From the IMG/VR virus record IMGVR_UViG_3300031658_000079, positions 1 through 27,997 of that record: DNA of 27,997 bases; one strand, given 5' to 3'. The position numbers and the translations under genes were made by a program. A model generated the notes under the pieces. The model had not been told where the DNA came from. It saw only the letters and a program-made list of their open reading frames with translations, and made no database searches. Position 1 is the first letter of the stretch. Every line of letters begins with the position of its first letter. This stretch comes from a virus (lineage: Duplodnaviria > Caudoviricetes). Of the stretch, positions 5,528 through 24,433 are shown piece by piece.

Positions 5528-8500
5528 ATGCCTGTTACTTGTCCTTCGTGTTCGTCAATTACTCTTACAGCTGCTTCCGGAAATACTAATTGTATTTCTG
5601 AATGGAGGGCTGAAATATTTTGTACCTCTAATCCTTTTGATAAAGTTACTACAACTCTTCAGTATAGCGTAACCGGTACAGGAGGATGGACTGATATTCT
5701 TTTGTCTTATCTAGATTATCAAAATACATTTCAGAATTTTAATTCCCCTACGCAAAATATGAATGGGTTGGGAACTCAAACAGGGTATTTTGATTATAAT
5801 ACACAGACTTTTGATGGGTATCATGCATTCAAACATCAATGTGGAGCACTTAGTCCCTTTCAAGAAAATAAGACTGGGTATTATAGAGTAAAAGCAGAGC
5901 TAGAATACCCTTCAATAACTTGTACACAGTACTCTAATTCCGTTTTAATAACAATTGGATCAGGTAATATTGTAGATTTAGAAGCTAGTGTCTCGTGTGG
6001 GTGTGTAGACACTGACTCTACTTATGGAACAAGTGCTAAATTAGCTCTTAATTTTCAAGCTTCTGCTCCAACATGTCCTTCGGACTGCAGGTTTGAAAGC
6101 TGTCCAACTCTTCTAAGTATGTCTGATGGGGATATAGTATACAACTTACCCTCAAAGGTAGAGGATAGATCTGTAGTTTTATTTAATATTAATGATTTAG
6201 GGCCAGCTAACTCTGTAGCATTCGCAGCAGGGAAGAATTATATGTATTGGACTAGTGCTACTTCCGGGTATATAACAGAAGTAGGATACCAATGGCCTGG
6301 AGGGTGGGATTTTGAAACAGGAGCTACAGCTACCTCTTTCAAGGTAGGAGTACTTAATTTAGATTATGTTACGCCTTTGTATTCGTGGGGATCACATTTA
6401 GCGGATATACCAAATACTACACACCAACTTTTAGCTTCTCATAGAAATAGACATATAAATTTTAATGGTTCTAGTTTAACCACAAATTACCAATTACATA
6501 CTGGGGGACAACATCCTAACTCTATATATATAATAAATAACTATAATATTAGTGATCTGGCTCAGGGTAAGATATACCCTGCTCTGTTTGACTGGGGAGG
6601 AGTGACACGCCAGGAGCAATTTGATTTTGGGATAGTAGTTACATCTGACTATGACGCTGGCGACAGTGCGGGAGATTTAGTTGGGACTGTTTTAGTGAAT
6701 TTAGATCCAATTCGTATGGTTAACCCCTTAGAAGTACAAGCGGCGGATATGGAACCTATGTTTATGTATCCAGATTATAATTTTTATGATGCTGCTAATT
6801 CTAACCCCGGAGCACTCCCAACTATGAATGCTGAGGTAGGTATAACATCTGGGTTTGATTATAAAACATATTGTTCAGGAGATTTAACAGTATTTAGAAC
6901 AAATGCCCACACAACACTATATTCTTTAGATGATGCAAGTAATACCTTTACAACCGGTACCTCTAATCATCCTTGTACAGGAGTTGGGGCAGATTGTCCT
7001 CCTTATTACCACTCGTCCGATGTAAATGCGCCCCACGCTAGTATAGGTAGACTTAAAATATTAAATAGAATAGAATATGTATCGTCTACGGCAGGAGAAG
7101 ACGATGAGTTTCCTAGTACAACAACTGCTATAAAACTTAGATTTGCAAATGGATCTTTAACATCTCCTGGAGCCACCGCTGAAGAAGGGTGGTACCACAT
7201 TATAGCTAAAGATTGGAATAGAGAGATATATAATACATGGAACACGGCTAATCCACAGACCCCAGCAATGAATAATGGGTCTACACAGCATTGGGCGTCT
7301 CTTGGAAATGCAGGAATAGGATTTTCTTCACATCAAAATTATAACACTATTTATAATACTAGTTTCTTTAGTATGCCTCAATATGAACTCTTTTTTGAAA
7401 ATGGAACAGATACTTGGAGATATGGGTTTAACCCGTTAGGACTACATGCGTCATATGGTACTATTCCATACCAAGTTGATGAGGCAGGTAAAAGCACCTT
7501 TAGAGTTTTAGATACTACAAATGGTGGGGCATGTACAGGATATGCTTCCAGCTGTTCCGATCCTGTATCTTTAAATTTTGATTCTAATACTGTTTCGACG
7601 TTCTCAAGAGGATCAGGCCGATCTGAAAAAAGAAGTACAGTTTGCTTCTATTGTGATAAATTAACAGGGAAGGTTGAGGCTGTTTCACCTGGAGATGATG
7701 GACCTTCAGGAGATATAAGTGTCCCTTTTGAGTTTGTATCTCTAAGTACTACTAATCCTACCTATGCAAATTGGGGAGATGGTTCTATCACTTTAACTGT
7801 AAATAGAACTGCTATTTTTAGTGATAATTTTCCAGTGCCTATACCAAACTATAGGTATAAAGCGGTTATATATAAAGTTTCAGGTCCAGGAGTAAGTTGG
7901 ACTGATTCACAATCCTATATTGTTGCTGGGGGAATCCAAGATTTATTAACTTCACCTGTAGTTACTTTTGCGAGTACTACATATCCGTCTCCTTTATTAT
8001 TACCAGAGGGGCACTATAGTATTAAGTGGTCTATAAATGTAATTGATCCTGGAGTATACGAGGTAGAAGAGTGTTGGTGGGAATACCCAGTATCACTAAC
8101 GGCGGACAATGTTGCTCCAAATCCTCCTATATTTCTACATTTGGGTATACATACTAGCGGATATAGTTTTAAAGTACAGGCCTTGGATACTGTTAGATCA
8201 TATGCATCCGCACCAACACTTACACCTGTGTTTACACCTCCTACTACGTCTTTCGTACAATGTCAAGAAGGTACGTGTTTAGACAGTGGAACAGTCAGTG
8301 GTACTGTTGGAACTAATATTACGTTATACGGCGGAGGTTCTTTATATAGCTATAAAGATGTATGTGTAGCTGCAGGGCATACTTGGAACGGATTTGATCA
8401 CATAGCATCTATAGAAGATGTAACAGTTGGTAATTGGGGAAATATGACCGCTAAACCAACCTTTACACACTCTTACCCTCTCAGTGGGGTACCATACCCT

Positions 8501-11500
8501 AATCATGCGTATAATAAAACGATCTGGCAATCTTCTACGTACTTTCCTAAAACTACTCCTAGTTTTATATCATCGGCAATAGGTACATTGTACCCAGCCG
8601 CAGATATTGATATTAAAGTAACTTGGGAAAGTGGATTTACTAAAACTTTTACTTTAACTTCCCCGATAATGCACGGTAGAGGAGGGCAGGGTCTAAATGG
8701 ATGGTGGAACCTTGGTGATTTAGCTCCATGTGCAGCAGAAATGTGGCCTACAGGGCAGTCATTATATAACGAGCCTGGAATCACTTTTCTACCGTATGAT
8801 CAGAATGCTACAACTACTTCAAGTGCTACGTCTCCTTACGTATCGCACGTTCCTCACCTCGTTCGTACACAAAGTTCAACTACCGCACATAATTTAAATC
8901 AATCATATAAAAATCAACAATTTTATAAAGTGTTGTCTTTACCTAGTCAGGCTCCTACATATCCGTACGAAGTTTATGATGGAGTAGGTAGTGCGCATGG
9001 CCAGTCAGGGAAAGGTATTCGTGGTTATTTCAGTACGTCACAATTTGTAGATTGGAATATTGGAAGGTCTTTAGCTGCAAACGGTACTGCAACTTTACAC
9101 GCAGGAATGATACTTGGTGGATTTACTGGGGAAGTTCTATATAAAATAGGACATGTTAGTGTTCTCTCCTCGTGGTTTGCTGCCAATTCCCTAGCTGCAG
9201 TTGCAGGGGTATTATCCACAATTGGAACTTCTACACACTATGATGATTTAATAACAAGTATTAAAAATACTACTGGAACCGCATACCAAGGGAATATAAC
9301 CTCGCCTGCAGTAATTGGAGGTGTAGGTACAGCTGGAACACTTACAGATGCGGATGACTCAGGAATATATTTTGAAGATGGTCTTTTTTATGCTAAAGAT
9401 TGTCCTGTATGTTTAACCCCACAATTTGATAAAGCATGTAGAGCGGCTGGGGCTATAAATTTAGATCTTACGGGCTATTCATCTGCTAGCACTTTGGCTT
9501 CACAGGATGATGGATCTTGTATGATGTGTGAGGCAGGATCAGGTAAATTACAAGTAGACGCTTGGGATCCGGGAGACGATGATCCAGCGCACTTTTCGTT
9601 TTACAACACAAACCCTATTCCATACCCGTCTTCTGGTCCTGACTTAGATGTGTCTAACCTAATTGAAGGGACAGGAAATATTTTAGATATTAATACAGGT
9701 TCTAATAATTGGGGAGCTGATGATGGACTATTAAATGTAGTAGATGGTTCTAATTTTTTAGGGAAGACTTGGTATAAAATACAAGGGGGATCAGGAGCAT
9801 ATTTAGGTTATGCCTCGAACACTACGGATGGCTCAGGAGAGATTCTGTTTAGAGCTGATTTTTGGGGTCAGTTTTTACTTGCAGCTAGCACTTCTATGGG
9901 GAATTTAGGTACTGATTTTCAAGTATTTTATGAATTATTTTACTACAATACTTCTACAAGTTCATGGGATTTAATTGAGCAGAGAGGTACAGCATCATAT
10001 GTTAACGGTGTTCCCTCTACAGTAGAAGACTTTCATTCTGGAACCACAACCCAGAATATCACATACGGACATTATAAATTACGAATTAAAGCGGTTGATA
10101 CAAATATTGGTTTCAGTGGTCCTCTTACTACATGTTTTCAAGATGTTTATCTTAATATGAGAGTTAGAGTATGTGATACCTTATACTCAACAACGGACGG
10201 AATAATTATATCTGATCCAAACGAAAGAATTGTAGACCCTAGTTTATCTTGTAACTGTTGTCCAGCTCTTGTATTAAGTGCAACTACTTCAGGAACAGGT
10301 TGTAATATAACACAAGGACTAACGATTACTGCTAATTGTGATTCAACAAACGGGGTAACACTAATTAGCTCCACATTAACAGCAACATTTCTTACAGGTC
10401 CTCTTGCAGGATCTTCCTCAAGTTTGGGCGCTATCACATCCTTTACCGGAAGTCCGGTTACAACTGGGAGTGTTACTGCCGCACATCTAGGACCAATGGC
10501 TCTATATGGAGCTTCATATACCGTTACTAGTACCTACACAGGCGGAACGTGTGATGGGGCGGTATTAACAAGTGCTCCTTTCAGCATTGCCGCTACTCCT
10601 ACTTGTGAATGTCAAGATCCAACTGCACTTAATTATCAAACTGTATACCCTAACGGAAATGCAGACTGTGTTGGGGCTATTGGAGGAACAAATTACAGTT
10701 GCTGTACATACCCAACAGCCTGTGCAGCTCCTACAGTAGCTATTGTAAGTACTGCATGTAACGTAACTTTAACTGCTACGTCAACTTGTTCTGGAAGTAT
10801 GCCTGATACAACACAATTTTTTGTGATGGATGTATCTGCAACTAGTAATGTATGGGATGCAAATAACCCTACATATACAGGGGCAACTCAAACTTTTGCA
10901 CCTACAACTGCCGCTATAAGTTGGACAATGGTTGAAAGTTGCAATTTGAATCAAATCTCAATATGGGCAGGTCTTACTAATGGAGTTTTTGTAATACTAC
11001 AAAGACAAACTTGGACCACTACTGGTTATACAATTGACAGTGTTAGTTCTGTATTCACTTTAGGTACGGGCTCTAATCCTTTAGGTACAGGACATTTTCC
11101 AGTTGTTTGTGGGTGTACTATTCAAACAGTTGGTTCTCCTGCTATAACTGCAACAAATTATAGCGCTTCAAATACCTGCGGTGATGGAAGTTGTATCTAC
11201 CCAGGGTGTATGGACGCAACAGCTACAAATTACAACGCGGCAGCTACAATTGATGATGGAAGCTGTCTAGGCGATCCAAGCTGCTCTATAATAACTGGTC
11301 TGAATTGGCGTAGGCCTGACTGCTCTTCCGGGTGGTGTGACCCTGAGATAGAGTTTAACTGGGCACAGTGTGATACTGATTCTGCTGGTAACAGTATAGA
11401 GTCTCCTGACACTATTCAGATTAAGACTATTTTTAGCATAGACAACGGTGCTTCATGGGTGCAAAGTTCCCAATATACTGTAGCGGGAGTAATGAATACT

Positions 11501-14500
11501 CCAGGAAATACTAGTGATACAACTACTTATTTAGGTACTCCATTAAAACTACAAGATTTATTTACATCTTGGTTTAATGAGGGTTTAATTGCTTCACCAG
11601 ATATATTTGACTGTGTGTTTGCATATCTGGTTATGTCAACCTACCCAACAGCTCCAAATGCTTCTAGCAGCACGTACAGTGAAATTGTTCGTGTGTTAAA
11701 TCCTCACGGACCAAATCCATACTCATGGCCTATAAGTGTAAGTGATACTTCTAATTTAACAGCAGGGGTTCAAACTAACTGTCATGCAGGAACTTGGCAT
11801 GGTACTGCTTTAGGAGCGGGCCCTCATGCTTCTGCGGGACAACCTACAACTATTCTTGTAGCTCCTTGTGGATGTACAGATGATGGAACTATTACTCCTT
11901 CTACTGGTTGGTTTTTACCAACAGTCTCGGCATATACATCTCCACTATTTTCTACATCAACACCAGCAGATAATTTAATGACGAATTCTTCTATGGGAAT
12001 AGATGATGGTTCATGTATATATGCAGGATGTATGGACTCATCAGCGTCTAATTATAATAGTGGGGCTTCTCAAGATTGTACAAGTCTTTGTGGGACAGCA
12101 ACTTGCTGTTGTACTTACACAGGATGTACAGATAATTGTGCAATCAATTATGATCCTTTAGCTGTTACTGATGATGGATCGTGTCTTTTACCAAATCCTA
12201 CTATAGGCACTACATTTATGCCTAGTACTCTGTGTACTATGCCATTTAGACTTGTATTTAAGCAGTCTGGGCAGTATGGAGCTGCCTGGGGGTTTACATC
12301 TGTAGCGTGGACTGTTCATTTTGATCCAGCAGGTACTAACGTTCCTGTTTTGAGCGGAACTACTGCTTCTGCGCCATATAACGTTGTAACTATTAACTGG
12401 ATGGATGACTGTAGTACAGCTACGATTTTTTCATCTGGTCCAGGAACTTATAGATTTACAGGTGTACTAACATATCCTAGTGGGTGTTCTATTACTCTTA
12501 CTACAGATATGACTAATAGTTCTCAGTTTATTACATGTGATTGTGCACTTTGCCCAAGTTGTAGTAATTATAACTCATCAGCTACTTGTGATGATGGCTC
12601 TTGTACAGGGTGTACTGATATTACTGCCAGTAATTATAATTCTGGAGCAGTTATTGATGATGGATCTTGTATTGTTAGTGGATGTACTGACGCAGGAGCA
12701 GCAAATTATAATGCACTAGCTACTGTAGATGATGGAAGTTGTTTATTTTGGCATGTATGGGAAGAGTGTACTTCTGGAGATAAGATGTCGTTTGGAGGAG
12801 GGACAGGTCCAGGAATAGTAACATTACTTAACAATCAAGTTGGTTTAAATTATATTAACCCCCTTGAAACTATAGGAGAAACTTTTCAAGCAGATTACTG
12901 GGATGGAACGGCTTGGCAGACAGATGGATGTTGGAAATACATAGGAACAGCTTCAGGAGACAATCCTGCAAATTATACTAACCCATTAAACAGTGGTGTA
13001 GGTCCAGCACAATGGATACCAGCAGTTGTAACTACAACGTATTCAAATTGTTTAGGATGTATACCAGTATTAGGTTGTATAGACCCTACAGCATATAATT
13101 ATAATTTTAATTGTGCAGGTGCTGCAGTATTAGCAACAGTAGATGATTTTTGCTGTGCTTATTCTTGCTGTGGTGCTCCTATTTTCACACAGGCGGCAGG
13201 ACATGTAGATTCTTGTGATGCAGAGTATACAATGACTATTAATTGTAATGCTATTGCCGCAGATAATGCAGACACTATAACAACAACTTTACAATTTTGG
13301 GACGGGACTGCCTGGCAAATAGCTAATAGTTCTGTTTATGATCCTGCAGGCACAGATAATATAACTAGTCATTCAATCACTTATCACTATAATTGTAATA
13401 CTGATGACTTTGGGGGGTATGGCACAGGACAATATAGAATATACTCATCAATAACATACTCAAATGGAGTTACGTGTTCATCCCACTCAAATGGTGGTGC
13501 TAGTATAGTAATTACGTTAGACCCAGGAGGATGTACTGATATTAATGCAACCAATTATGACGCAGCTGCTGTTTGCCAATGTGTAACCTGCCTCTATAAC
13601 CACTGCTGCGCTACTCCGGTATTAACTATAGACGGAACAAACGGAATATGTGCTCAATCTTTAGAGTGTGACATACAATGTGATCCAGCTGCTGATGATG
13701 GATATACAGCTTTGTGGCAAAGTTTTGCTACTGGGTCTTGGGTTACTATAGATACTCAAACTAGTGCAGGGCCTACAGCGGCTGCTACACTAACCCTAGC
13801 TAATAGTTATTTACATACTGCTAGTGGAACATCAGAAAATTATAGAGTAGTCTTTACAAGTGATTATACTGCACCTACTCCAGATTGTACAATTTATTCT
13901 AACATATTAACAGTTATAGCCCCTATCTTAGGGTGTATGGATGGAGGGTTAACTGAATATACAGTAGGTCCAGGGGGTACAGGATTTGGAACGGCAGCTG
14001 ATGGAATAACAGCTTCAAATTATGATCCTACAGCTGAGTGTGATGATGCAAGTTGTTGTGTTGATGGGTGTACAGATGCACTTGCTACAAACTATAATGC
14101 TTTAGCAACTTGTGGTGATGGCTCGTGTACTTATACATGTTGTACCAGTCCTGCATTAATAGCAAACTATACTGCCCCTTGTTTCCCTCATCTGGAATGG
14201 ACAAGTGACTTTAGTGCGTGTCCTGCTACTCCAACCTCTTTAACATTAGATTGGTATGAGAACACAGCTGGTAATATTCTAGTACAAACAACAGTATATC
14301 CTGCTCCCGTAGATGGAACAACTTATATATTACCTAATGCAATTTCAGCTCCTTTTGGGACAATGCTATGGTGGGTAATTCCAACATATACTTTTGGAGG
14401 TACTTCAATCCCTGACTGTAATAATATTGAGATGGTAGTTATTGTTGCTCCCATTCTAGGTTGCACTAACCCACTCTCTTTAAATTATAATGCTTTAGCT

Positions 14501-16399
14501 ACATGTGATGACGGTAGTTGTATAACTCCTGTTTTTGCTTGTACTGACCCTACAGCTGTAAATTATAACCCAAATGCATCTAACGATGATGGATCTTGTA
14601 TACATTGTGGGACAGGATGTACTGATACTGCAGGAGGGTATTCTAATTATGATGCTACAGCTATTTGTGATTGTGATAATGTATGGGTTAACATGGGGAC
14701 ATGTAGCGATACCGCATATTACGACGATAATGCGTGTACTACAGGGGGTGGAACTTGGACTAACACATATACAAACAATAATACTTCAGCAACGTGGAAT
14801 ACTTGCTGCATTGCTTGTGTTTATGGATGCACAGATTTTAATTGGAATAATTATAACCCTTTGGCAACTTGCCCTTGTACGGAATTATTAGGAACAGAAC
14901 CTTGCAACACTAGTACAAACTCTTTAACTGGAGATGACTGTTGTTGTACAAGTTGTATTTACGGGTGTACTGATGATGGAAGTAAAAATCAACTTTGGTG
15001 GGATGGAGGAGGTGGAACAGATTACGCATTCGCTACAGGAATAGCTACATATGGGGTAACACCTAATGCAGCCGGCGCTACTAATTTTAATAGTCTTGCA
15101 ACATGTGAAGATGGTTCGTGTACATATGCCGGGTGTACAGATTTATTAGCTACAAATTATAACTCTAATCTGGTAGCAGATTGCTTAGGCGTGGTAGCAG
15201 GATCAAATTGGTCTACATGTTGTGTGTACCCTGCGACTGGGTGTACTGATGCTACTACACCCGCGTTTAATATTACACCAGGAGCAACAGTTGATGATGG
15301 TTCGTGTATGTACTGTGATTTAGCTACAGGGAATTATGAAGACGCTGCTGGAGCAGATCAAGCAACATGGGCTACAGGGACTTATACTCAATCCCCAACA
15401 ACAAGTATAGCTGCTGTAGATGGAAGTGTGTTTACTTCTTTCACTTTAACTAGTGTTGGAATAGCGCTTCAAAATACTGCAGAATTTTTAAATGGTACTA
15501 ATAGCTTTGCTATAGAGTTATATACTGTGCCTACAAATTGTGGAGCATCAAGTGGTGGTACACTTCTAGCTACAGGCCCTTTAACATTAGCTTCAAGTAG
15601 TATTATAACTAATAATTTTACAGGGCTGCCTTATGGGTATTACGCAGTGAAATTAGTTGTTAAGAATTCTATCGGTACTACAGAGCCTACTAATTGCTGG
15701 GTTGAGTCATGCGCATTAATACAGGCTACTGTTTGTTCTGATGCTGCTGCTGCTAATACTTCTACAATAGCTGCAAATTTACAGTATACTGATAATACAT
15801 TATGTATTTATCCAGGATACTGTGCATGTCAGGCAAGTTTAAGTGTTACAACAGGTACTCCATGTAGTAATTCTGCAGTTATAAATGCTACAATTTCTTG
15901 TACAACATTTACAGATATTTCTTGGAGCTGGCAAGACGCTGGAGGAAACACGCTTTTAGCAGGAGTTACTTCTGCGGTATTGGCGGGACAAATTGTTTCA
16001 AGTCTTCCTGTAACAACAAATGCAACGTATACATTTATATGGGATGAAACAAGCACACCTTACGCTACTTGCCCTCAACAGACTGCTGCTACAACTGTTA
16101 CTACAATAATATCCTGTGCGTGTACAGATTCTACAGCGGCTAATTATAATGGCACAGCAACGTATAACTGCCTTGGTAATCCTGTTCCAGATCAAACTGC
16201 AGGATGGAATGCATCACCTTGTTGTTTAAGTTGCATATATGGATGTATGTCTTCTACAGCTTTAAACTATAATATAAAAGCTACATGTGACGACGGATCT
16301 TGTATTGAGCCTGGAGACGGATGTTGTGATCCAGGAGCTGCTAATTTTAACTCAGCAGCAACAAATTGTCTCCCTAACCTATGTACATACTGTAACTAA
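5528..16399 (+). CDS. Giant Cys-rich repeat protein (3623 aa), probable virion appendage/adhesin
   Basis: Uninterrupted 10.9-kb ORF. Roughly 20-25 GC[TM]DxxAxNYxxxAxxDDGSC-type units are interspersed with beta-rich domains. No signal peptide. Confidence 0.8.
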   Translation: MPVTCPSCSSITLTAASGNTNCISEWRAEIFCTSNPFDKVTTTLQYSVTGTGGWTDILLSYLDYQNTFQNFNSPTQNMNGLGTQTGYFDYNTQTFDGYHAFKHQCGALSPFQENKTGYYRVKAELEYPSITCTQYSNSVLITIGSGNIVDLEASVSCGCVDTDSTYGTSAKLALNFQASAPTCPSDCRFESCPTLLSMSDGDIVYNLPSKVEDRSVVLFNINDLGPANSVAFAAGKNYMYWTSATSGYITEVGYQWPGGWDFETGATATSFKVGVLNLDYVTPLYSWGSHLADIPNTTHQLLASHRNRHINFNGSSLTTNYQLHTGGQHPNSIYIINNYNISDLAQGKIYPALFDWGGVTRQEQFDFGIVVTSDYDAGDSAGDLVGTVLVNLDPIRMVNPLEVQAADMEPMFMYPDYNFYDAANSNPGALPTMNAEVGITSGFDYKTYCSGDLTVFRTNAHTTLYSLDDASNTFTTGTSNHPCTGVGADCPPYYHSSDVNAPHASIGRLKILNRIEYVSSTAGEDDEFPSTTTAIKLRFANGSLTSPGATAEEGWYHIIAKDWNREIYNTWNTANPQTPAMNNGSTQHWASLGNAGIGFSSHQNYNTIYNTSFFSMPQYELFFENGTDTWRYGFNPLGLHASYGTIPYQVDEAGKSTFRVLDTTNGGACTGYASSCSDPVSLNFDSNTVSTFSRGSGRSEKRSTVCFYCDKLTGKVEAVSPGDDGPSGDISVPFEFVSLSTTNPTYANWGDGSITLTVNRTAIFSDNFPVPIPNYRYKAVIYKVSGPGVSWTDSQSYIVAGGIQDLLTSPVVTFASTTYPSPLLLPEGHYSIKWSINVIDPGVYEVEECWWEYPVSLTADNVAPNPPIFLHLGIHTSGYSFKVQALDTVRSYASAPTLTPVFTPPTTSFVQCQEGTCLDSGTVSGTVGTNITLYGGGSLYSYKDVCVAAGHTWNGFDHIASIEDVTVGNWGNMTAKPTFTHSYPLSGVPYPNHAYNKTIWQSSTYFPKTTPSFISSAIGTLYPAADIDIKVTWESGFTKTFTLTSPIMHGRGGQGLNGWWNLGDLAPCAAEMWPTGQSLYNEPGITFLPYDQNATTTSSATSPYVSHVPHLVRTQSSTTAHNLNQSYKNQQFYKVLSLPSQAPTYPYEVYDGVGSAHGQSGKGIRGYFSTSQFVDWNIGRSLAANGTATLHAGMILGGFTGEVLYKIGHVSVLSSWFAANSLAAVAGVLSTIGTSTHYDDLITSIKNTTGTAYQGNITSPAVIGGVGTAGTLTDADDSGIYFEDGLFYAKDCPVCLTPQFDKACRAAGAINLDLTGYSSASTLASQDDGSCMMCEAGSGKLQVDAWDPGDDDPAHFSFYNTNPIPYPSSGPDLDVSNLIEGTGNILDINTGSNNWGADDGLLNVVDGSNFLGKTWYKIQGGSGAYLGYASNTTDGSGEILFRADFWGQFLLAASTSMGNLGTDFQVFYELFYYNTSTSSWDLIEQRGTASYVNGVPSTVEDFHSGTTTQNITYGHYKLRIKAVDTNIGFSGPLTTCFQDVYLNMRVRVCDTLYSTTDGIIISDPNERIVDPSLSCNCCPALVLSATTSGTGCNITQGLTITANCDSTNGVTLISSTLTATFLTGPLAGSSSSLGAITSFTGSPVTTGSVTAAHLGPMALYGASYTVTSTYTGGTCDGAVLTSAPFSIAATPTCECQDPTALNYQTVYPNGNADCVGAIGGTNYSCCTYPTACAAPTVAIVSTACNVTLTATSTCSGSMPDTTQFFVMDVSATSNVWDANNPTYTGATQTFAPTTAAISWTMVESCNLNQISIWAGLTNGVFVILQRQTWTTTGYTIDSVSSVFTLGTGSNPLGTGHFPVVCGCTIQTVGSPAITATNYSASNTCGDGSCIYPGCMDATATNYNAAATIDDGSCLGDPSCSIITGLNWRRPDCSSGWCDPEIEFNWAQCDTDSAGNSIESPDTIQIKTIFSIDNGASWVQSSQYTVAGVMNTPGNTSDTTTYLGTPLKLQDLFTSWFNEGLIASPDIFDCVFAYLVMSTYPTAPNASSSTYSEIVRVLNPHGPNPYSWPISVSDTSNLTAGVQTNCHAGTWHGTALGAGPHASAGQPTTILVAPCGCTDDGTITPSTGWFLPTVSAYTSPLFSTSTPADNLMTNSSMGIDDGSCIYAGCMDSSASNYNSGASQDCTSLCGTATCCCTYTGCTDNCAINYDPLAVTDDGSCLLPNPTIGTTFMPSTLCTMPFRLVFKQSGQYGAAWGFTSVAWTVHFDPAGTNVPVLSGTTASAPYNVVTINWMDDCSTATIFSSGPGTYRFTGVLTYPSGCSITLTTDMTNSSQFITCDCALCPSCSNYNSSATCDDGSCTGCTDITASNYNSGAVIDDGSCIVSGCTDAGAANYNALATVDDGSCLFWHVWEECTSGDKMSFGGGTGPGIVTLLNNQVGLNYINPLETIGETFQADYWDGTAWQTDGCWKYIGTASGDNPANYTNPLNSGVGPAQWIPAVVTTTYSNCLGCIPVLGCIDPTAYNYNFNCAGAAVLATVDDFCCAYSCCGAPIFTQAAGHVDSCDAEYTMTINCNAIAADNADTITTTLQFWDGTAWQIANSSVYDPAGTDNITSHSITYHYNCNTDDFGGYGTGQYRIYSSITYSNGVTCSSHSNGGASIVITLDPGGCTDINATNYDAAAVCQCVTCLYNHCCATPVLTIDGTNGICAQSLECDIQCDPAADDGYTALWQSFATGSWVTIDTQTSAGPTAAATLTLANSYLHTASGTSENYRVVFTSDYTAPTPDCTIYSNILTVIAPILGCMDGGLTEYTVGPGGTGFGTAADGITASNYDPTAECDDASCCVDGCTDALATNYNALATCGDGSCTYTCCTSPALIANYTAPCFPHLEWTSDFSACPATPTSLTLDWYENTAGNILVQTTVYPAPVDGTTYILPNAISAPFGTMLWWVIPTYTFGGTSIPDCNNIEMVVIVAPILGCTNPLSLNYNALATCDDGSCITPVFACTDPTAVNYNPNASNDDGSCIHCGTGCTDTAGGYSNYDATAICDCDNVWVNMGTCSDTAYYDDNACTTGGGTWTNTYTNNNTSATWNTCCIACVYGCTDFNWNNYNPLATCPCTELLGTEPCNTSTNSLTGDDCCCTSCIYGCTDDGSKNQLWWDGGGGTDYAFATGIATYGVTPNAAGATNFNSLATCEDGSCTYAGCTDLLATNYNSNLVADCLGVVAGSNWSTCCVYPATGCTDATTPAFNITPGATVDDGSCMYCDLATGNYEDAAGADQATWATGTYTQSPTTSIAAVDGSVFTSFTLTSVGIALQNTAEFLNGTNSFAIELYTVPTNCGASSGGTLLATGPLTLASSSIITNNFTGLPYGYYAVKLVVKNSIGTTEPTNCWVESCALIQATVCSDAAAANTSTIAANLQYTDNTLCIYPGYCACQASLSVTTGTPCSNSAVINATISCTTFTDISWSWQDAGGNTLLAGVTSAVLAGQIVSSLPVTTNATYTFIWDETSTPYATCPQQTAATTVTTIISCACTDSTAANYNGTATYNCLGNPVPDQTAGWNASPCCLSCIYGCMSSTALNYNIKATCDDGSCIEPGDGCCDPGAANFNSAATNCLPNLCTYCN
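10600..16396 (+). repeat. Dispersed coding repeats GC[TM]D-x2-A-x-NY-x3-A-x2-DDGSC in the giant protein
   Basis: Examples: GCMDATATNYNAAATIDDGSC, GCTDITASNYNSGAVIDDGSC, GCTDAGAANYNALATVDDGSC, GCTNPLSLNYNALATCDDGSC, GCMSSTALNYNIKATCDDGSC. Confidence 0.9.
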
Positions 16400-18052: not shown

Positions 18053-18334
18053 ATGGCTAAAGAGTTAAATGAAGATACTGGTTTTACGATTAGTATTAAA
18101 ACTTTAGTAGGGATAGGAGCAGCCATGGCAACTGTTATAAGTATGTGGTTTATACTACAAGCTGATATAGCGGAAGCAAGGGAGTTACCAACGCCGTTAG
18201 AATCAGATGTTAGTAGGATGGAATTTGATATGAAGGATAAAATGATTAGACAGACTATAATGACAACTCAGCAGGATGTAGAGGATATGAAAAAAACTCT
18301 AGAACGAATAGAGGATAAACTTTACAAGAGATGA
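18053..18334 (+). CDS. Single-pass membrane protein with C-terminal coiled coil
   Basis: Hydrophobic segment LVGIGAAMATVISMWFIL, then heptad-like QQDVEDMKKTLERIEDKLY. Its stop overlaps the next start (ATGA). Confidence 0.75.
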   Translation: MAKELNEDTGFTISIKTLVGIGAAMATVISMWFILQADIAEARELPTPLESDVSRMEFDMKDKMIRQTIMTTQQDVEDMKKTLERIEDKLYKR

Positions 18335-18693
18335 AAGATAAAAGTACTGTTTGGAGAATCTTCGTGATGTATTTACTTGTATTAGCTTGTATGTTAATAT
18401 CTAGTTCAGCGTTTAGCCAGCTTCAAGTAGTAGTTTTTAACGCAGGGTGGAACGCTGCAAACGACGTAAAGTGGGCATATGATTTAAAAGATGTTGAAAC
18501 GTATGTTTATGTAGATGTGAGTAAAGATGTTAATTTACAAAAGAAGCACAAGATAGCAGTTATACCTACTATCATATTATTTAAAGATGATATTGAAGTT
18601 ATAAGATTTCAAGCTGATCTTAGTTTTAAAATGATAGCAACAAAAGAAGAAGTACAAGATGAGATAGATAACCAAATAATGAGCGATTTTTAA
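18331..18693 (+). CDS. Exported thioredoxin-fold protein lacking the CxxC active site
   Basis: Signal peptide ending AFS|Q. VVVFNAGWNAAN aligns with thioredoxin VVDFxAxWCGPC, and YVDV...LQKKHKIAVIPTIILFKD matches the thioredoxin cis-Pro region. Confidence 0.75.
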   Translation: MKDKSTVWRIFVMYLLVLACMLISSSAFSQLQVVVFNAGWNAANDVKWAYDLKDVETYVYVDVSKDVNLQKKHKIAVIPTIILFKDDIEVIRFQADLSFKMIATKEEVQDEIDNQIMSDF

Positions 18694-18694
18694 A

Positions 18695-21037
18695 ATGAGG
18701 AGATTACTACTACTATTATTATTACCACTTAATTTATTATCCCAGGATTCTTGGGTTAATTTTAAAGTACAGTTTGACTTCTACGCACTAACAGAGTCGA
18801 ACTTCTTTATGGTATCAGATGCATCTGGAGATACAGCTATGTTCTTTCAACCTACTCAACAGTATGAGTATCTAGATACGACTATAGCTTTAAATTCTGG
18901 CTCATATCTATTATCTCTTATGGATAGTTTTGGGGATGGATGGGTATCAGCGCAACCAGCTTGGTTTAAAATGAGTAATATATGTCAAGGTCCTATAGTA
19001 AATTTTACCCCATTAACAATGGCTTTCTTTACGCTAGACACTTTAGTTAATATTTGGCCGTGTGCCCCACCAACGCCACCTTTATGTGCTCCTGCTTTAT
19101 TATACCTTAACTTGGATCAATTCCCAGGAGAAACAACATGGGAAATTAAAGACACAGTTGGAACTATATTAGAATCTGGAGGGCCTTACGCTGTTAATTA
19201 TCAACAACTTACTATACCACTATGTTTACCCCTATCTCCGTTAGTATTTACTATTAACGATACGTATGGGGATGGAATGGCTGGATCATTGTGGGGAGGA
19301 CAAGATGGCTCATATTATATTGTACAATGTTATGACACATTAGTAGATGGAAGTGTTGCTAATTTTATAGATGACTCAACTCATTATTTTATAGCAGATA
19401 CTTGTGCTCCTATCTTTGGTTGTATGGACCCTTTATATTTAGAGTTTAATGTTCAAGCAGATACTAGTGACGGATCCTGTTTAACCTTAATATCATATGG
19501 CTGTATAGATGACAGTATGTATAATTGGAATCCTTTAGCAAACACAATGGAATTAATACCTAACTGTGATTACACATTAACTCTATATGATTTAATGGGT
19601 GATGGTTGGGTTGGCTCTTACCTAGAAGTTGTACAAGGCCTAGACACAAATCAATATATTTTAACAGCAGGTTTTCAACAGAGTTTTACTATAAACTTAG
19701 ATGCACCTCAAGCAGTATCTTTCAAATTCTTCATAACACAACAAGCACAACTAACAGCTGCCCATTGTGGATTTAAACTAACAAACCCTTTAGGAGATAG
19801 TATAATAGAAGTACCAGCTCCATTCCTATTACCTCTTTCTACACATATTACAAATACTTATTGCGGTAATACCTGCGTTGAGAAAGTTTTTGGATGTACA
19901 TTTCCTTTAGCTATTAACTATGATAGTTTAGCAAATACGGATGATGTAAGTTGTTATTATAATCCAGGGTGTACCAATCCGGTATACTTAGAGTATAATG
20001 CTGCGTATGACCAAGAGAATGGTTCTTGCAGCACACTAGTGGTAATAGGGTGTATGGACTCCACTGCATTTAATTATATAGACACCGCAAACACAGAACT
20101 ACCTAACTCTTGTATAGCAGTTGTTGAGGGGTGTATGCAACCATTAGCTTTTAACTATAATGTTAATGCTAATACAGAAGACACTTGTATTGCTATAGTA
20201 TATGGATGTATGAGTCAATTAGCATTAAATTACGACTCACTCGCAAATGTTGATGATAATAGTTGTATTGGAATTGTTTATGGGTGTATTGATACCCTAG
20301 CATTTAATTTCTCTCCTACGGCTAATGTAGACGATGGAGGGTGTATTCCAGTTATGTATGGGTGTATTAACCCAATCATGTTTAACTTTGATACTAGCGC
20401 CAATACTAATGATGGAACGTGCATTCCTTTTATATTTGGATGCACTGACTCAATAATGTTTAATTTTAATATACTAGCAAATGCTGATAACAATTCTTGT
20501 ACTCCTTATGTGTACGGCTGTACTGACCCTTCTTCTCTTAATTACAACGCCCTTGCCAATACAGAAGATTTTAGTTGTATCCCTTACATGTATGGTTGTA
20601 CCGATAGTACTGCTATTAATTATGACTCGACAGCTAATACTGACAATGGTTCGTGTATGGCTGTGGTGGAAGGATGTATGGACCCAAATGCCTACAACTA
20701 CTCAGGATTTGCTAACAGTAGTGACAGCGCTTCTTGCTTATATAGTGCTAATTGCATATCTGGTGATAGTATACCATATTGGTTAAATGACCCTTGCTAT
20801 GCTTGGGTGTTAGAAGTAGATGATTACTGTTGTAATAATGAATGGGATAATATATGTCAATTAACTTACAACCATTGTAATGGTTCTTATACAGGCCCTT
20901 TATTAAGTAGGACGCAAGGAGAAGTAAAATTAATATCTATCACAGACTTACTGGGCAGGCCAGCAAAGGAAGGTAATAATAACTTACTGTTTTATAGATA
21001 TAGTGATGGAACAGTAAAAAAACAATTAAAAAAATAA
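18695..21037 (+). CDS. Exported Cys-repeat protein with T9SS-like C-terminal tail
   Basis: Signal peptide MRRLLLLLLLPLNLLS|Q; three D-x2-GDG[WM] beta-domains; 13 GC-x5-[NE][YFW]-type repeats; a DDYCCNNEWDNIC module; C-terminus KLISITDLLGR...LLFYRYSDGTVKKQLKK. Confidence 0.8.
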   Translation: MRRLLLLLLLPLNLLSQDSWVNFKVQFDFYALTESNFFMVSDASGDTAMFFQPTQQYEYLDTTIALNSGSYLLSLMDSFGDGWVSAQPAWFKMSNICQGPIVNFTPLTMAFFTLDTLVNIWPCAPPTPPLCAPALLYLNLDQFPGETTWEIKDTVGTILESGGPYAVNYQQLTIPLCLPLSPLVFTINDTYGDGMAGSLWGGQDGSYYIVQCYDTLVDGSVANFIDDSTHYFIADTCAPIFGCMDPLYLEFNVQADTSDGSCLTLISYGCIDDSMYNWNPLANTMELIPNCDYTLTLYDLMGDGWVGSYLEVVQGLDTNQYILTAGFQQSFTINLDAPQAVSFKFFITQQAQLTAAHCGFKLTNPLGDSIIEVPAPFLLPLSTHITNTYCGNTCVEKVFGCTFPLAINYDSLANTDDVSCYYNPGCTNPVYLEYNAAYDQENGSCSTLVVIGCMDSTAFNYIDTANTELPNSCIAVVEGCMQPLAFNYNVNANTEDTCIAIVYGCMSQLALNYDSLANVDDNSCIGIVYGCIDTLAFNFSPTANVDDGGCIPVMYGCINPIMFNFDTSANTNDGTCIPFIFGCTDSIMFNFNILANADNNSCTPYVYGCTDPSSLNYNALANTEDFSCIPYMYGCTDSTAINYDSTANTDNGSCMAVVEGCMDPNAYNYSGFANSSDSASCLYSANCISGDSIPYWLNDPCYAWVLEVDDYCCNNEWDNICQLTYNHCNGSYTGPLLSRTQGEVKLISITDLLGRPAKEGNNNLLFYRYSDGTVKKQLKK
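19892..20737 (+). repeat. Tandem array of 11 Cys repeats of about 26 aa
   Basis: The Gly-Cys codon pairs at 20204, 20282, 20360, 20438, 20516, 20594 and 20672 are exactly 78 nt apart. Four further units lie upstream, from 19892. Confidence 0.9.
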
Positions 21038-21044
21038 TAAAATA

Positions 21045-21416
21045 ATGGCACAATCATCAGAAGAAGTACTTCTAGCTGGAATATCAGGAGAAGTAAAAAC
21101 AACAAGAGACCACATGTTAGGACAACTAGGTTCTGCATTTAATGATTCAGGAGACGCTGTAACTCCCCCAACAGGTAAGGTTATAACTGCAATTTCTTTT
21201 TTAGGAACTATGTCTTTAGCTGGGTTGGTAGCAGAAAATATATCAGGTAGCATGTCTTTTGCTTTAACGGCAGGCCAGAATGGAGAAGGTGCAGGAGGCG
21301 AGGTAATAGACGCAAGTAATAAATTTCCTTCTGGAGCAACTATACACGGAAGGTGGACTTCTGTAACATGTACTGCACAAGCTTCTGGAGGTATAATAGC
21401 TTATTTCGGGTACTAA
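21045..21416 (+). CDS. Hypothetical small beta-rich phage protein
   Basis: 123 aa, Gly/Ala/Thr-rich (LGQLGS, PPTGKVITAI, FPSGATIHGRW). Its stop overlaps the next start (TAATG). Confidence 0.65.
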   Translation: MAQSSEEVLLAGISGEVKTTRDHMLGQLGSAFNDSGDAVTPPTGKVITAISFLGTMSLAGLVAENISGSMSFALTAGQNGEGAGGEVIDASNKFPSGATIHGRWTSVTCTAQASGGIIAYFGY

Positions 21417-22432
21417 TGAATAGTATGGGTATAAATATCAGTAATCCTATTTCAGATTCCTCTAGGAAGATGAAGTATGTGGCATCAGTTAAGTCTGTAA
21501 CTATGGGAGGAACTTCTGACTATTTAGATTGTGGGGATGCAACTGATTTTTCACATACTTCTGGGTACGGCGCTTCCAATGATTTACCATTTAGTGTATC
21601 TGCGTGGGTTAAAGCCTCCGGCACTCAAAATTATACTATTGTAAGTAAAGCAGACGCGGCTTCTGGTAACCATGAATATAGAGTATTTATGCTAGGCAAT
21701 AAAATATACTTTGATGTATATTCTAATACTAATAATGTTTATAAACGTGCATACTCTGTAAATGCACACACATATGCAAACACATGGGTGCACTATGTTG
21801 CTACATATGCTGGCGACTTTAACGTTTCCAATCCCCTTAGAATTTATATAAATGGAGTTCTGGATATAACAGGTACTGGATCTGGAGGGACATATACAGG
21901 TATGAACAATGAAACCTCAAAGTTGACATTTGGACACATGTTATCAGACCCTAACTATGATTTAGCAGGGAATATGTCAGATATAATGATGTGGAAAGAT
22001 TATGAGCTATCTCCTGCGGAGGTTGACGCTATGTATAATGATGGTGTATACTCAGTAGATCCTATGGAAGATAAGGGATCTTATGGGGGAGCAGCTTACT
22101 GTAAATTATGGTTAAAATGTGATGCTGATGTTGCTATCACTTCACCTACTTCGTCTACTGTGTACGTATCATACAGAGACCCAGCAACTCCAGAGGTCCC
22201 ACCATCGGGATCAATACTTAAACTTACGTCCGGAGAGGAATTTGATGAACACTGCTCAGGGTTTACGGACCCTTGCTGGAAAATAATAGATCCTGCAGGT
22301 ACTCCGGGAATTACGGGTACTCCGGATTACAGTGGGGGCACAGTGCACAATACAAGTTATGTAAATCAAACTTCACTAAATGCTTCTACTACACCGTGTA
22401 GTGCTGTTATTTCTAATGAATATGCCTTTTAA
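21416..22432 (+). CDS. LamG / concanavalin A-like lectin-fold protein
   Basis: FSVSAWVK, TIVSK, WVHYVATY, RIYINGV, GNMSDIMMW...LSPAEVDAMYN. Start reassigned from 21353 to the coupled ATG at 21416. Confidence 0.85.
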   Translation: MNSMGINISNPISDSSRKMKYVASVKSVTMGGTSDYLDCGDATDFSHTSGYGASNDLPFSVSAWVKASGTQNYTIVSKADAASGNHEYRVFMLGNKIYFDVYSNTNNVYKRAYSVNAHTYANTWVHYVATYAGDFNVSNPLRIYINGVLDITGTGSGGTYTGMNNETSKLTFGHMLSDPNYDLAGNMSDIMMWKDYELSPAEVDAMYNDGVYSVDPMEDKGSYGGAAYCKLWLKCDADVAITSPTSSTVYVSYRDPATPEVPPSGSILKLTSGEEFDEHCSGFTDPCWKIIDPAGTPGITGTPDYSGGTVHNTSYVNQTSLNASTTPCSAVISNEYAF

Positions 22433-22433
22433 T

Positions 22434-23501
22434 ATGAAAAAATTAATACTAATATTATTTTGTCTTTTTACTTTAGGTGCCAATGCCCAAATAAAAAAGT
22501 ACTTTAAGTTTGCTACTTTCTATGCGGCAGTGAATGGAGGAACATCTATGTCTGACCTTAAAACTTTTAAAGTATCATCAGGGCAATTAGAAGAGGGGAT
22601 TACAACTACTCCTTATGATTATTCTGTTACTTTAGGGTTACGGAAAATAGCTAGATTTGGGTATGAGAATAAAGCCAATACATTTTATGATGGTACTGAG
22701 ACATCTTGGTCAGATAATGCTACAGTTGGTAAAGTACAAGGATTTGAATATTTATTTGAATTAGACTATGCTAGACAACAAGGTGTAGATTACCTAGACC
22801 AGCATCATTTTATTAGATATAGTTCTGATGATGATTGCGTAGGTAAGTGGTGCCTTAATGAGTTTACTACCAAAGTAGAATACTTAAACGACGGTTTTGC
22901 TGATGTTGAGTATTTTGAAGTATCAGAAAGATATAGAATTAAGAAAAATAGAAAACTAGCTTTTAATATAGGAGCTGCACATAGACTATCAGAGCCTTAT
23001 GGGTACGATCCTTTAGAGGATTGGATATTAAGTAATGGTAGTTTACATTATACGCATTTAGCTATAATGGAGGGATATACGGTCGATGTATATGCAAATG
23101 AATATAAAGATCCAGATGGTAATATAGTTGCTACTAGCTCTGAGGTATGGAAAGAAGTAATAATACCACAAGTATTAGCAGATTATTCTGAAAAGAAAAG
23201 AAACGAATTAAATAACCAGATACAACATTCTCTTATAGTTGGGTTTGATTACTATAAATATTCTAAAACCTCTTGGCTGCACGCTTGGGGAAATTTAATG
23301 CCGTTACATTATAATGATAACAGTGAATTTTCTTACCATAGATATAATGACGGAGAACAATGGTATGATTATTCTGCTGGTTTAATATATGGTGTTAAGA
23401 TAAATAGTCATTTAGGTTATTTTGTAGAAGGAAAATATAATAAGTATTGGAACAGAACCTGGTACGATTTTAAGTTTGGAGTTAATTACGTTATATTCTA
23501 A
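22434..23501 (+). CDS. Probable outer-membrane beta-barrel protein
   Basis: Start reassigned to 22434 (MKKLILILFCLFTLGANA|Q signal peptide). Many amphipathic, aromatic-ended strands. C-terminus YDFKFGVNYVIF has the terminal-Phe beta-signal pattern. Confidence 0.75.
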   Translation: MKKLILILFCLFTLGANAQIKKYFKFATFYAAVNGGTSMSDLKTFKVSSGQLEEGITTTPYDYSVTLGLRKIARFGYENKANTFYDGTETSWSDNATVGKVQGFEYLFELDYARQQGVDYLDQHHFIRYSSDDDCVGKWCLNEFTTKVEYLNDGFADVEYFEVSERYRIKKNRKLAFNIGAAHRLSEPYGYDPLEDWILSNGSLHYTHLAIMEGYTVDVYANEYKDPDGNIVATSSEVWKEVIIPQVLADYSEKKRNELNNQIQHSLIVGFDYYKYSKTSWLHAWGNLMPLHYNDNSEFSYHRYNDGEQWYDYSAGLIYGVKINSHLGYFVEGKYNKYWNRTWYDFKFGVNYVIF

Positions 23502-23757: not shown

Positions 23758-23967
23758 ATGTCTATCACAAACAAGCAGATACACGACGAGCTTAAAGATC
23801 TTAAACTTGATGTGAGATATATTAAGAAGAAGTTATTAGATCCGGATGATGGGACTATAGCTAGGGTTAATAAGAACACAGAGTTTAGAGCAACAACAGG
23901 TAAAGTACTATGGTCCGTTTGGATTGTATTATTAGGTATAATTGGTAAACTAACATTTTGGAATTAA
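23758..23967 (+). CDS. Small membrane protein, holin candidate
   Basis: 69 aa from the ATG at 23758. Charged N-terminus, one C-terminal TM segment (VLWSVWIVLLGIIGKLTFW), and 1 nt before the DUF5675 gene. Confidence 0.5.
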   Translation: MSITNKQIHDELKDLKLDVRYIKKKLLDPDDGTIARVNKNTEFRATTGKVLWSVWIVLLGIIGKLTFWN

Positions 23968-23968
23968 G

Positions 23969-24433
23969 ATGAAATTAAAAGTATTAAGATTTAGCAGCCA
24001 AAAGGATTCAACTAATGGATTACTTTTTGACGCAACAGATGGTGATAAGTTTTTATGCTATACACTAGAAGATGAAGCGAGAGCTATTAAGGTAAAAGCA
24101 GAGACACGTATTCCAGCAGGAGTTTATAAAATTCTATTTAGAACAGAGGGTGGATTTCATGCAAAATATACGAACAGGTATGGTAGCATGCATAAAGGTA
24201 TGCTACATATACAAGATGTTCCTAATTTTGAGTATATCCTTATACACACAGGTAACACTGATGAGCATACTGCAGGATGTTTAATTTTAGGAGATTCTCA
24301 AGAAAATAATATAACAACTGAGAATGGGTTTATAGGTAAATCTACTACTTCTTATAAACGCGTATATCCTAAGATAGCTAAAGCATTAGAAAAAGGTGAA
24401 GAAGTAACAATTGAGTATATTGATTTTGATTAA
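23969..24433 (+). CDS. DUF5675-family protein, putative cell-wall enzyme/endolysin
   Basis: LCYTLED, TRIPAGVY, QDVPNFEYILIHTGNTDEHTAGCLILG; His...Gly-Cys arrangement as in L,D-transpeptidase-like folds. Confidence 0.8.
   Translation: MKLKVLRFSSQKDSTNGLLFDATDGDKFLCYTLEDEARAIKVKAETRIPAGVYKILFRTEGGFHAKYTNRYGSMHKGMLHIQDVPNFEYILIHTGNTDEHTAGCLILGDSQENNITTENGFIGKSTTSYKRVYPKIAKALEKGEEVTIEYIDFD

Follow-up and report, generated by a model that had tools for sequence, protein, structure and literature searches.

Three linked envelope-protein genes with a predicted outer-membrane barrel in uncultured phages: a candidate for the outer-membrane step of host lysis or for its control

A stretch of 27,997 nucleotides from an uncultured virus of the Caudoviricetes (positions 1 to 27,997 of IMG/VR record IMGVR_UViG_3300031658_000079; the whole stretch is called the window here) contains three genes, A, B and F, that encode proteins predicted to be addressed to the inner membrane, the periplasm and the outer membrane, respectively, and that are found together in phages of several kinds. 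On balance, we favor the view that this trio represents a new class of phage machine for outer-membrane disruption or lysis control, which would combine a barrel, a thioredoxin adaptor devoid of redox activity and a coiled coil in the inner membrane. It would be common to crAss-like and other podovirus-like phages as well as siphoviruses of small-genome marine Flavobacteriales, and one clade would add a host-tagged surface protein, the product of gene C. C is a clade-specific passenger, nearly obligate in the clade of the window. The first-pass annotation of this DNA had proposed that the products of A, B, C and F form one system that remodels the envelope of the infected cell. Its assignment of exported or envelope proteins to four compartments is supported by sequence and fold, and so is a Bacteroidota host; the single four-part system is not, because A, B and F occur without C in all 50 of the distantly related records described below.

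A (18053-18334, 93 aa), B (18331-18693, 120 aa) and C (18695-21037, 780 aa with 41 Cys) follow one another on the plus strand, as do all long genes of the window. There is an ATGA overlap of A and B at 18331-18334 and a 1-nt gap between B and C at 18694, and F (22434-23501, plus strand, 355 aa) comes two genes past C; this arrangement is as first annotated, apart from the start of F. The list of open reading frames (ORFs) gave 22380, and the most likely start is the ATG at 22434, 1 nt past the stop codon of gene E, because the homologues align from there. None of A, B, C and F had a confident family match in profile scans of the window proteins. Tight gene spacing was considered as evidence of a system and rejected, since it is general in this operon, with equally tight gaps at 17197-18051/18053, between D and E and between E and F.

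A search of IMG/VR with F yielded 147 relatives, of which the best 80 loci were kept, and co-occurrence was scored within 10 kb. A was present in 76 and B in 75 of these 80 loci, and C in 63, most of the misses of C being at contig ends as read from the locus lengths; D, E and G were present in seven, two and 12 loci, respectively. Because the loci are related, and some are near-duplicates, these counts are not independent events. A second set was anchored on B and consisted of 49 of 78 new B loci, mostly not already found via F, whose whole records were searched. F was recognized in 39 of the 49 records and in 12 of the 12 near-complete ones, and the C-terminal part of C in 33 and in 11 of 12, the single near-complete miss lying near a contig end. 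The genes occur in the orders F-A-B-C, A-B-C-F and C-F-A-B.

The picture differs for distant relatives. Scans with F relatives of about 30% identity gave 20 + 80 loci. From this pool of 100, 50 with long contigs were picked and searched whole; the B profile used included four distant members. A and B were each found in 48 of the 50 records, and each in all of the 21 near-complete ones, whereas a profile search for C found it in none of the 50, 21 near-complete records included; the same C profile found C in three of three known carriers. Since C is missing from every distant record while A and B persist, A, B and F are regarded as the core and C as an addition. The conserved linkage in IMG/VR that the earlier annotation expected thus holds for A, B and F and fails for C. 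As far as these sequences tell, the trio does not need C, and no dependence of C on the trio was shown.

By its sequence, the window genome is that of an uncultured crAss-like phage, so called because of a match to the crassvirus major capsid protein at 488-1924 (PF23898, E 5.8e-79, profile scan). The match to a crassvirus ring protein was below the cut-off, and terminase and portal fall outside the 28-kb record. The trio is not confined to such phages. Among 50 of the 80 F loci, the Crass_capsid profile matched 11 of the F-bearing records and only four of the 18 near-complete ones, so that either the window's clade is not only crAss-like or its capsids are too diverged for the profile, and in the siphovirus L184 an HK97-type capsid and neck genes stand beside the trio. 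The carriers therefore comprise crAss-like phages, other podovirus-like phages and HK97-type siphoviruses. As a set, the trio was found only on phage-like DNA. Among 50,697 phage records, F, B and A had no match, and no cultured phage carrier was found there.

A has one helix at about residues 16-35, a Pro-rich linker and a C-terminal coiled coil, according to its sequence and alignments, and is predicted to be a type II inner-membrane anchor with a periplasmic coiled coil. Signal peptides and topology were judged here by eye and by conservation across homologues. The predicted anatomy of A resembles that of an i-spanin, in which a single N-terminal helix in the inner membrane (type II) precedes a periplasmic coiled coil. 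The periplasmic part, about 58 residues long, contains no Cys either in the window protein or in the consensus. PHROG matches of the window's A were only weak, among them phrog_1009 (unknown function), and its homologues showed weak matches to a holin (E 0.0016) and to an Rz-like family (E 0.046).

The gene overlapping A encodes B, which the first-pass annotation took for an exported thioredoxin-fold protein without CxxC, and this prediction is supported. B is weakly thioredoxin-like in a single-sequence family scan (E 5e-4), and its profile matches solved thioredoxins with a best E of 1.5e-7. The W-C-G-P-C of the thioredoxins aligns to W-N plus a gap, so the CxxC is missing, while the thioredoxin fold with its cis-Pro (Pro79) is retained. 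Cleavage is predicted before Gln30, which is invariant in 68 of 68 B homologues, and there is no conserved lipobox. Signal peptides of Bacteroidota are often cleaved before Gln. B is therefore predicted to be a periplasmic, redox-dead thioredoxin fold. Its relatives number 507 by an alignment search versus no loci by a single-protein scan; such scans were too narrow, and that with F likewise gave none in GTDB. The five best GTDB matches to B are phage-like contigs inside metagenome-assembled genomes (MAGs) of discordant taxa.

F, for which the first annotation had noted beta-barrel features, is a predicted outer-membrane barrel with a signal peptide. Cleavage is predicted before Gln19, invariant in 54 of 54 F homologues, and 12 barrel strands were counted by us in both AlphaFold2 models (predicted local distance difference test, pLDDT, 74.0 and 82.4). 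Two further parts are recognized, namely a conserved but poorly modeled loop at about residues 72-102 and a conserved inserted domain at 187-261; from strand parity, the insertion would face outward and the loop would face the periplasm or the lumen. Sequence searches of PDB, Pfam, NCBIfam and PHROGs gave no match to F, and a language-model search placed it near barrel families. Fold matches, computed on the pLDDT 74 model and accompanied by a Foldseek search, were best for Tsx (Z 14.3, root mean square deviation 3.8, 202 aligned), followed by EstA, KdgM, NanC, OmpG and NalP (Z 12.8-12.2), OMPLA (Z 11.4) and LpxR (Z 9.9). Many charged and aromatic residues are kept across relatives at about 30% identity, and 11 distant sequences all have H283, H292 and D312. 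Counted as clusters at the 90% level, the relatives of F number 3572.

Several observations concern the relatives of F and their surroundings. The F profile matched two of 401 Flavobacteriales genomes (five candidates scored in each), in one case on a phage-like contig and in the other as a distant gene standing alone. This second relative (L185 1006-2220, genome G163) has cellular genes on either side and comes from a MAG in which no A was found; it is possibly the source or the recipient of the phage gene. A GTDB bin labeled Woesearchaeota (G104; L085, L180-L184) holds five F matches on five contigs, and it looks like mixed phage DNA, because the four contigs inspected are phage-like. A lipobox-like N-terminus was seen in 13 of the 27 F homologues listed (for example L005, L018, L022 and L065). 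The same kind of signal, with a short Lys/Cys-Cys spacer and then Gln, is common to some homologues of F, C (L011, L017) and B (L082 2915-3253), and may be a lipidated variant that moves between these genes. Fifteen of the 80 F loci contain a member of a second, small outer-membrane barrel family of about 136 aa (for example L013 3032-3442, and L026 16275-16685 on the minus strand), often in an opposite-strand block beside a ribonucleotide-reductase-like gene.

It is the gene neighborhood, read by eye for about a dozen of the later loci, that favors lysis among the roles first listed for these proteins; adhesion or receptor masking fits only C. In L184, the order is tail completion-A-B-x-F-peptidase M15-holin-like, and L190 has the same. 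The complete 32-kb genome G512 shows A-B-x-F-M15-47 aa-holin (holin phrog_3427, E 9e-18), and no lipobox ORF of at least 45 aa was seen by eye on its coding strand. In another complete genome, G546, F-A-B is followed by a 70-aa lipoprotein, an endolysin (phrog_33083, E 1.5e-15) and a holin, while L081 reads C-F-A-B-amidase, with L084, L085 and L223 being similar. In the window, F is followed by a 56-aa gene, by G (23758-23967, plus strand), with a coiled coil and a C-terminal membrane helix, and by a DUF5675 gene (23969-24433, plus strand; PF18925, E 1.5e-26). G is holin-like by anatomy only and had no match in the family scans; the DUF5675 protein is a candidate endolysin, and a preprint treats DUF5675 as a candidate C82-like lysin (bioRxiv 10.64898/2026.04.11.717860). 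Altogether, the trio adjoins holins and four different endolysin families, and, since the lists of neighboring genes differ in the endolysin, it stays constant while these four families are swapped. Its location is that of a lysis cassette, in a looser form in many of the close loci.

Other genes of these neighborhoods are worth recording. A 70-aa lipoprotein between B and the endolysin (L276 7867-8079) has a hydrophobic C-terminal end, a topology like that of a unimolecular spanin and a weak Rz-like PHROG match (E 0.019). In small siphoviruses, a YfiM/VanZ-like (lipocone) membrane protein, recognized by weak Pfam matches, is encoded between B and F (L190 5655-6062, L287 1079-1447 and L184 5388-5759); this context is not described in the accessible text of the lipocone paper (PMC12419801). 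A membrane and coiled-coil protein of 360-400 aa with no confident family follows the endolysin in a larger phage lineage (L084 3664-4833, L085 8745-9830 and L081 11264-12463), and is another lysis-linked candidate.

From gene context alone we infer, somewhat less firmly than the existence of the class itself and at slightly below an even chance, that the trio performs the outer-membrane step of host lysis as a non-lipoprotein analogue of a spanin. Late in infection, A would accumulate in the inner membrane and F in the outer membrane, and B would act as a periplasmic adaptor that binds through its conserved cis-Pro edge. Holin and endolysin would first remove the peptidoglycan, and a bridge of A, B and F would then draw the two membranes towards each other or break through the outer one, in the manner of Rz/Rz1, with the barrel replacing the lipoprotein o-spanin. 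The contacts in such a bridge are conjectural; a complex prediction of F and A with B scored 0.01 against a mark of 0.32, with the controls not folded, and bears on nothing. C would pass through Sec and then the host's type IX secretion machine, to serve as a variable adhesin or receptor decoy.

Several points weigh against this proposal. The ends of late operons hold both the lysis genes and the trio, so the adjacency may reflect late expression only; in many close loci, the trio and the endolysin are three to 10 genes apart, and the stretch of L279 that was read shows no endolysin close by. Small lipoproteins, possible ordinary o- or u-spanins, adjoin the trio in four loci (L183, L223, L276 and L279), so the trio is not always a substitute for spanins. 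The periplasmic part of A is short for spanning the periplasm, and it lacks Cys; two-component spanins, in contrast, generally have intermolecular disulfides (Kongari et al. 2018, PMC6139136). Spanins are highly diverse, and the conserved charged and aromatic residues of F are more fitting in a channel, a sensor or an enzyme than in a passive anchor. Finally, an F relative stands alone among the cellular genes of the MAG mentioned above.

Another explanation is control of lysis timing, which we consider unlikely and yet the best of the alternatives. As with the holin T and the periplasmic antiholin RI of T4, A would act as a holin with one helix or as a regulator of the holin, B as its periplasmic binder and F as an outer-membrane channel or sensor of neighboring lysis or of superinfection, which together delay the burst. 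The adjacency to lysis genes suits this idea as well, as do the holin match of A homologues, the conserved charged residues of F and its best fold match, a nucleoside channel; because holins are usually encoded separately, there would be room for a regulator. However, no family scan gave a sequence link to T, RI or RIII, and the Tsx match shows no function, because other 12-strand barrels score close to it.

Still less probable is late protection of the infected cell or the progeny, whereby the trio would block or mask the phage receptor (superinfection exclusion, or prevention of re-adsorption to debris). All three proteins are targeted to the envelope, the conserved insertion of F would point outward by our reading of strand parity, and other small barrels are nearby in 15 loci; but the same trio exists in phages with unrelated tails and thus likely different receptors, and it is placed among lysis genes rather than early genes. 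We give slightly less credit to a four-part system, in which C would be exported, folded or anchored at the surface by F, A and B; B would be a holdase for the many disulfides of C, and F a PorV-like holder. The near-constant company of C and the trio in near-complete records of the window's clade, and the three gene orders that all include C, speak for it. The complete absence of C from the distant records, in a search whose positive control succeeded, speaks against it, and C bears the host's own sorting tail. PorV has 14 strands, in contrast to the 12 counted in F; F had no family match, its best fold matches are mostly 12-strand barrels, and PorV is absent among the 50 listed, although F may belong to a family outside that list.

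Improbable, too, is that F is a lipid-degrading enzyme of the outer membrane, OMPLA- or LpxR-like, switched on via A and B to weaken that membrane at lysis. OMPLA and LpxR are among the fold matches, the two His and the Asp mentioned above are invariant, and some siphoviruses have the weakly matched YfiM/VanZ-like gene between B and F, whereas F has no sequence match to any solved structure and the OMPLA motif was not seen in it. That these are ordinary virion components, or passengers with no joint role, is very improbable, since the place of the genes within the late structural operon and the sharing of the C repeat with the signal-less 3623-aa protein of the window and with an annotated virion structural protein of S-CAM3 are outweighed by the conserved signal peptides of B, C and F, the barrel fold of F and the presence of the same trio with unrelated virion types.

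C deserves separate treatment. Its homologues have a common layout of signal peptide, variable N-terminal heads, GC-D/Cys repeats, a six-Cys domain and a sorting tail; the N-termini show, by eye, the basic-hydrophobic-Gln pattern of Sec signal peptides across the homologues. Scans covered 41 of the 59 family members, and 11 of these 41 carry a MAM head. The six-Cys domain (20753-20878, plus strand, directly before the tail) is kept across homologues, five Cys being invariant and the sixth present in at least 90% of 51 aligned sequences. The first-pass annotation had noted a tail resembling those of the T9SS (type IX secretion system). TIGR04183/PF18962 gave no match in the window's C and was above the cut-off in eight of the 41 proteins scanned; the others, including that of the window, have a shorter tail (20921-21037, plus strand) that aligns as an internally deleted form of the type A C-terminal domain (CTD).

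Short tail and full CTD are interchangeable behind the same six-Cys domain in C homologues. At E 0.01, the last 77 residues of the window's C match 97 of 301 Flavobacteriales genomes; the matches run mostly through the tail, are often multi-copy (at most 19 scored) and lie almost all in assemblies of 0.8-2.3 Mb. Two such loci that were inspected (L289 1489-2541 and L293 172-1701) encode cellular signal-peptide proteins with the tail at the C-terminus. According to PMC10202324, GFP is secreted in P. gingivalis when it carries no more than the last 22 residues of a type A CTD. Because of this sufficiency, the interchangeability and the occurrence on cellular exported proteins, the short tail is likely a T9SS sorting signal, in a shortened form, of streamlined marine lineages. 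C is likely T9SS cargo displayed on the surface of the infected cell. Among the 50,697 phage records, C had only short repeat matches, in five of them, and its repeat also lies under the S-CAM3 feature annotated as a virion structural protein. In a 116-kb phage without C, a different exported protein of 208 aa with a sorting-tail-like end is encoded after B (L279 8301-8927).

The region lies between the 3623-aa protein and, downstream, the DUF5675 gene and a tail-fibre-like gene. D (21045-21416, plus strand, 123 aa) and E (21416-22432, plus strand; likely start 21416) both lack a signal peptide, and they were rejected as members of the set because of their rarity in the 80 F loci. E is LamG/ConA-like (PF13385, E 1e-15) and probably a virion or fibre part. 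The 3623-aa protein (5528-16399) has neither a family match nor a signal peptide, and bears the Cys repeat of C at about residues 2970-3260. A promoter scan of the window found 35 versus 40.8 expected, which is chance level, and a terminator scan found six versus 3.5 expected.

A conserved three-gene barrel candidate bears on how phages without recognisable spanins pass the outer membrane; if the proposal is true, the route would be common in environmental phages, because F alone has so many relatives. Whatever its role, a phage set with products for the inner membrane, the periplasm and the outer membrane that even a 32-kb genome retains is probably important. C and its short tail, in turn, point to small-genome Flavobacteriales hosts and to a shortened T9SS-type signal that is missed by current profiles.

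No published description of the A-B-F trio was found in the main full texts open to search. Of known systems, two-component spanins such as lambda Rz/Rz1 resemble it in three respects: an inner-membrane protein of type II has periplasmic helices, its partner resides in the outer membrane, and the genes are next to those for holin and endolysin. In the trio, the partner is, however, a predicted 12-strand barrel instead of a small lipoprotein, a third, periplasmic thioredoxin-fold part is present, and A lacks the periplasmic Cys for intermolecular disulfides and any significant family match. Where two-component spanins have an o-spanin lipoprotein gene that is embedded in, overlaps or follows the i-spanin gene, A is overlapped by B; optional lipoproteins are near the trio in four other loci. 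As lipoprotein partner and periplasmic Cys are both missing, the trio is not classed as a spanin. In the spanin survey of Kongari et al. (2018, PMC6139136), no spanin was found in about 13% of genomes, and an outer-membrane protein acting as an o-spanin is raised as a possibility only.

The 12-stranded barrels Tsx, NanC/KdgM, the autotransporter translocators and OMPLA share the overall fold of F (Z 14.3 to 11.4), but at 8-13% identity, and F has its own inserted domain and conserved loop. In lysis inhibition of T4, the holin T acts with the periplasmic antiholin RI. This pair is similar to the trio in that a one-helix inner-membrane protein with a periplasmic domain and an exported periplasmic partner take part in lysis control; it differs in that it has no outer-membrane barrel, the periplasmic part of A is a short coiled coil and no sequence similarity was found.

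Cryophage, a Bacteroidota phage, encodes variable proteins with a T9SS sorting domain, for which use of the host's machinery has been proposed (Bellas et al. 2020, PMC7468147). In the accessible text, its cargo consists of an endoglucanase, a GH39 and a PA14 protein and no barrel, thioredoxin or anchor trio is mentioned, whereas C combines Cys repeats with MAM or other heads and, in most cases, a shortened tail. In short, C alone appears to belong to a published kind, phage T9SS cargo, and what seems new here is the make-up of the trio.

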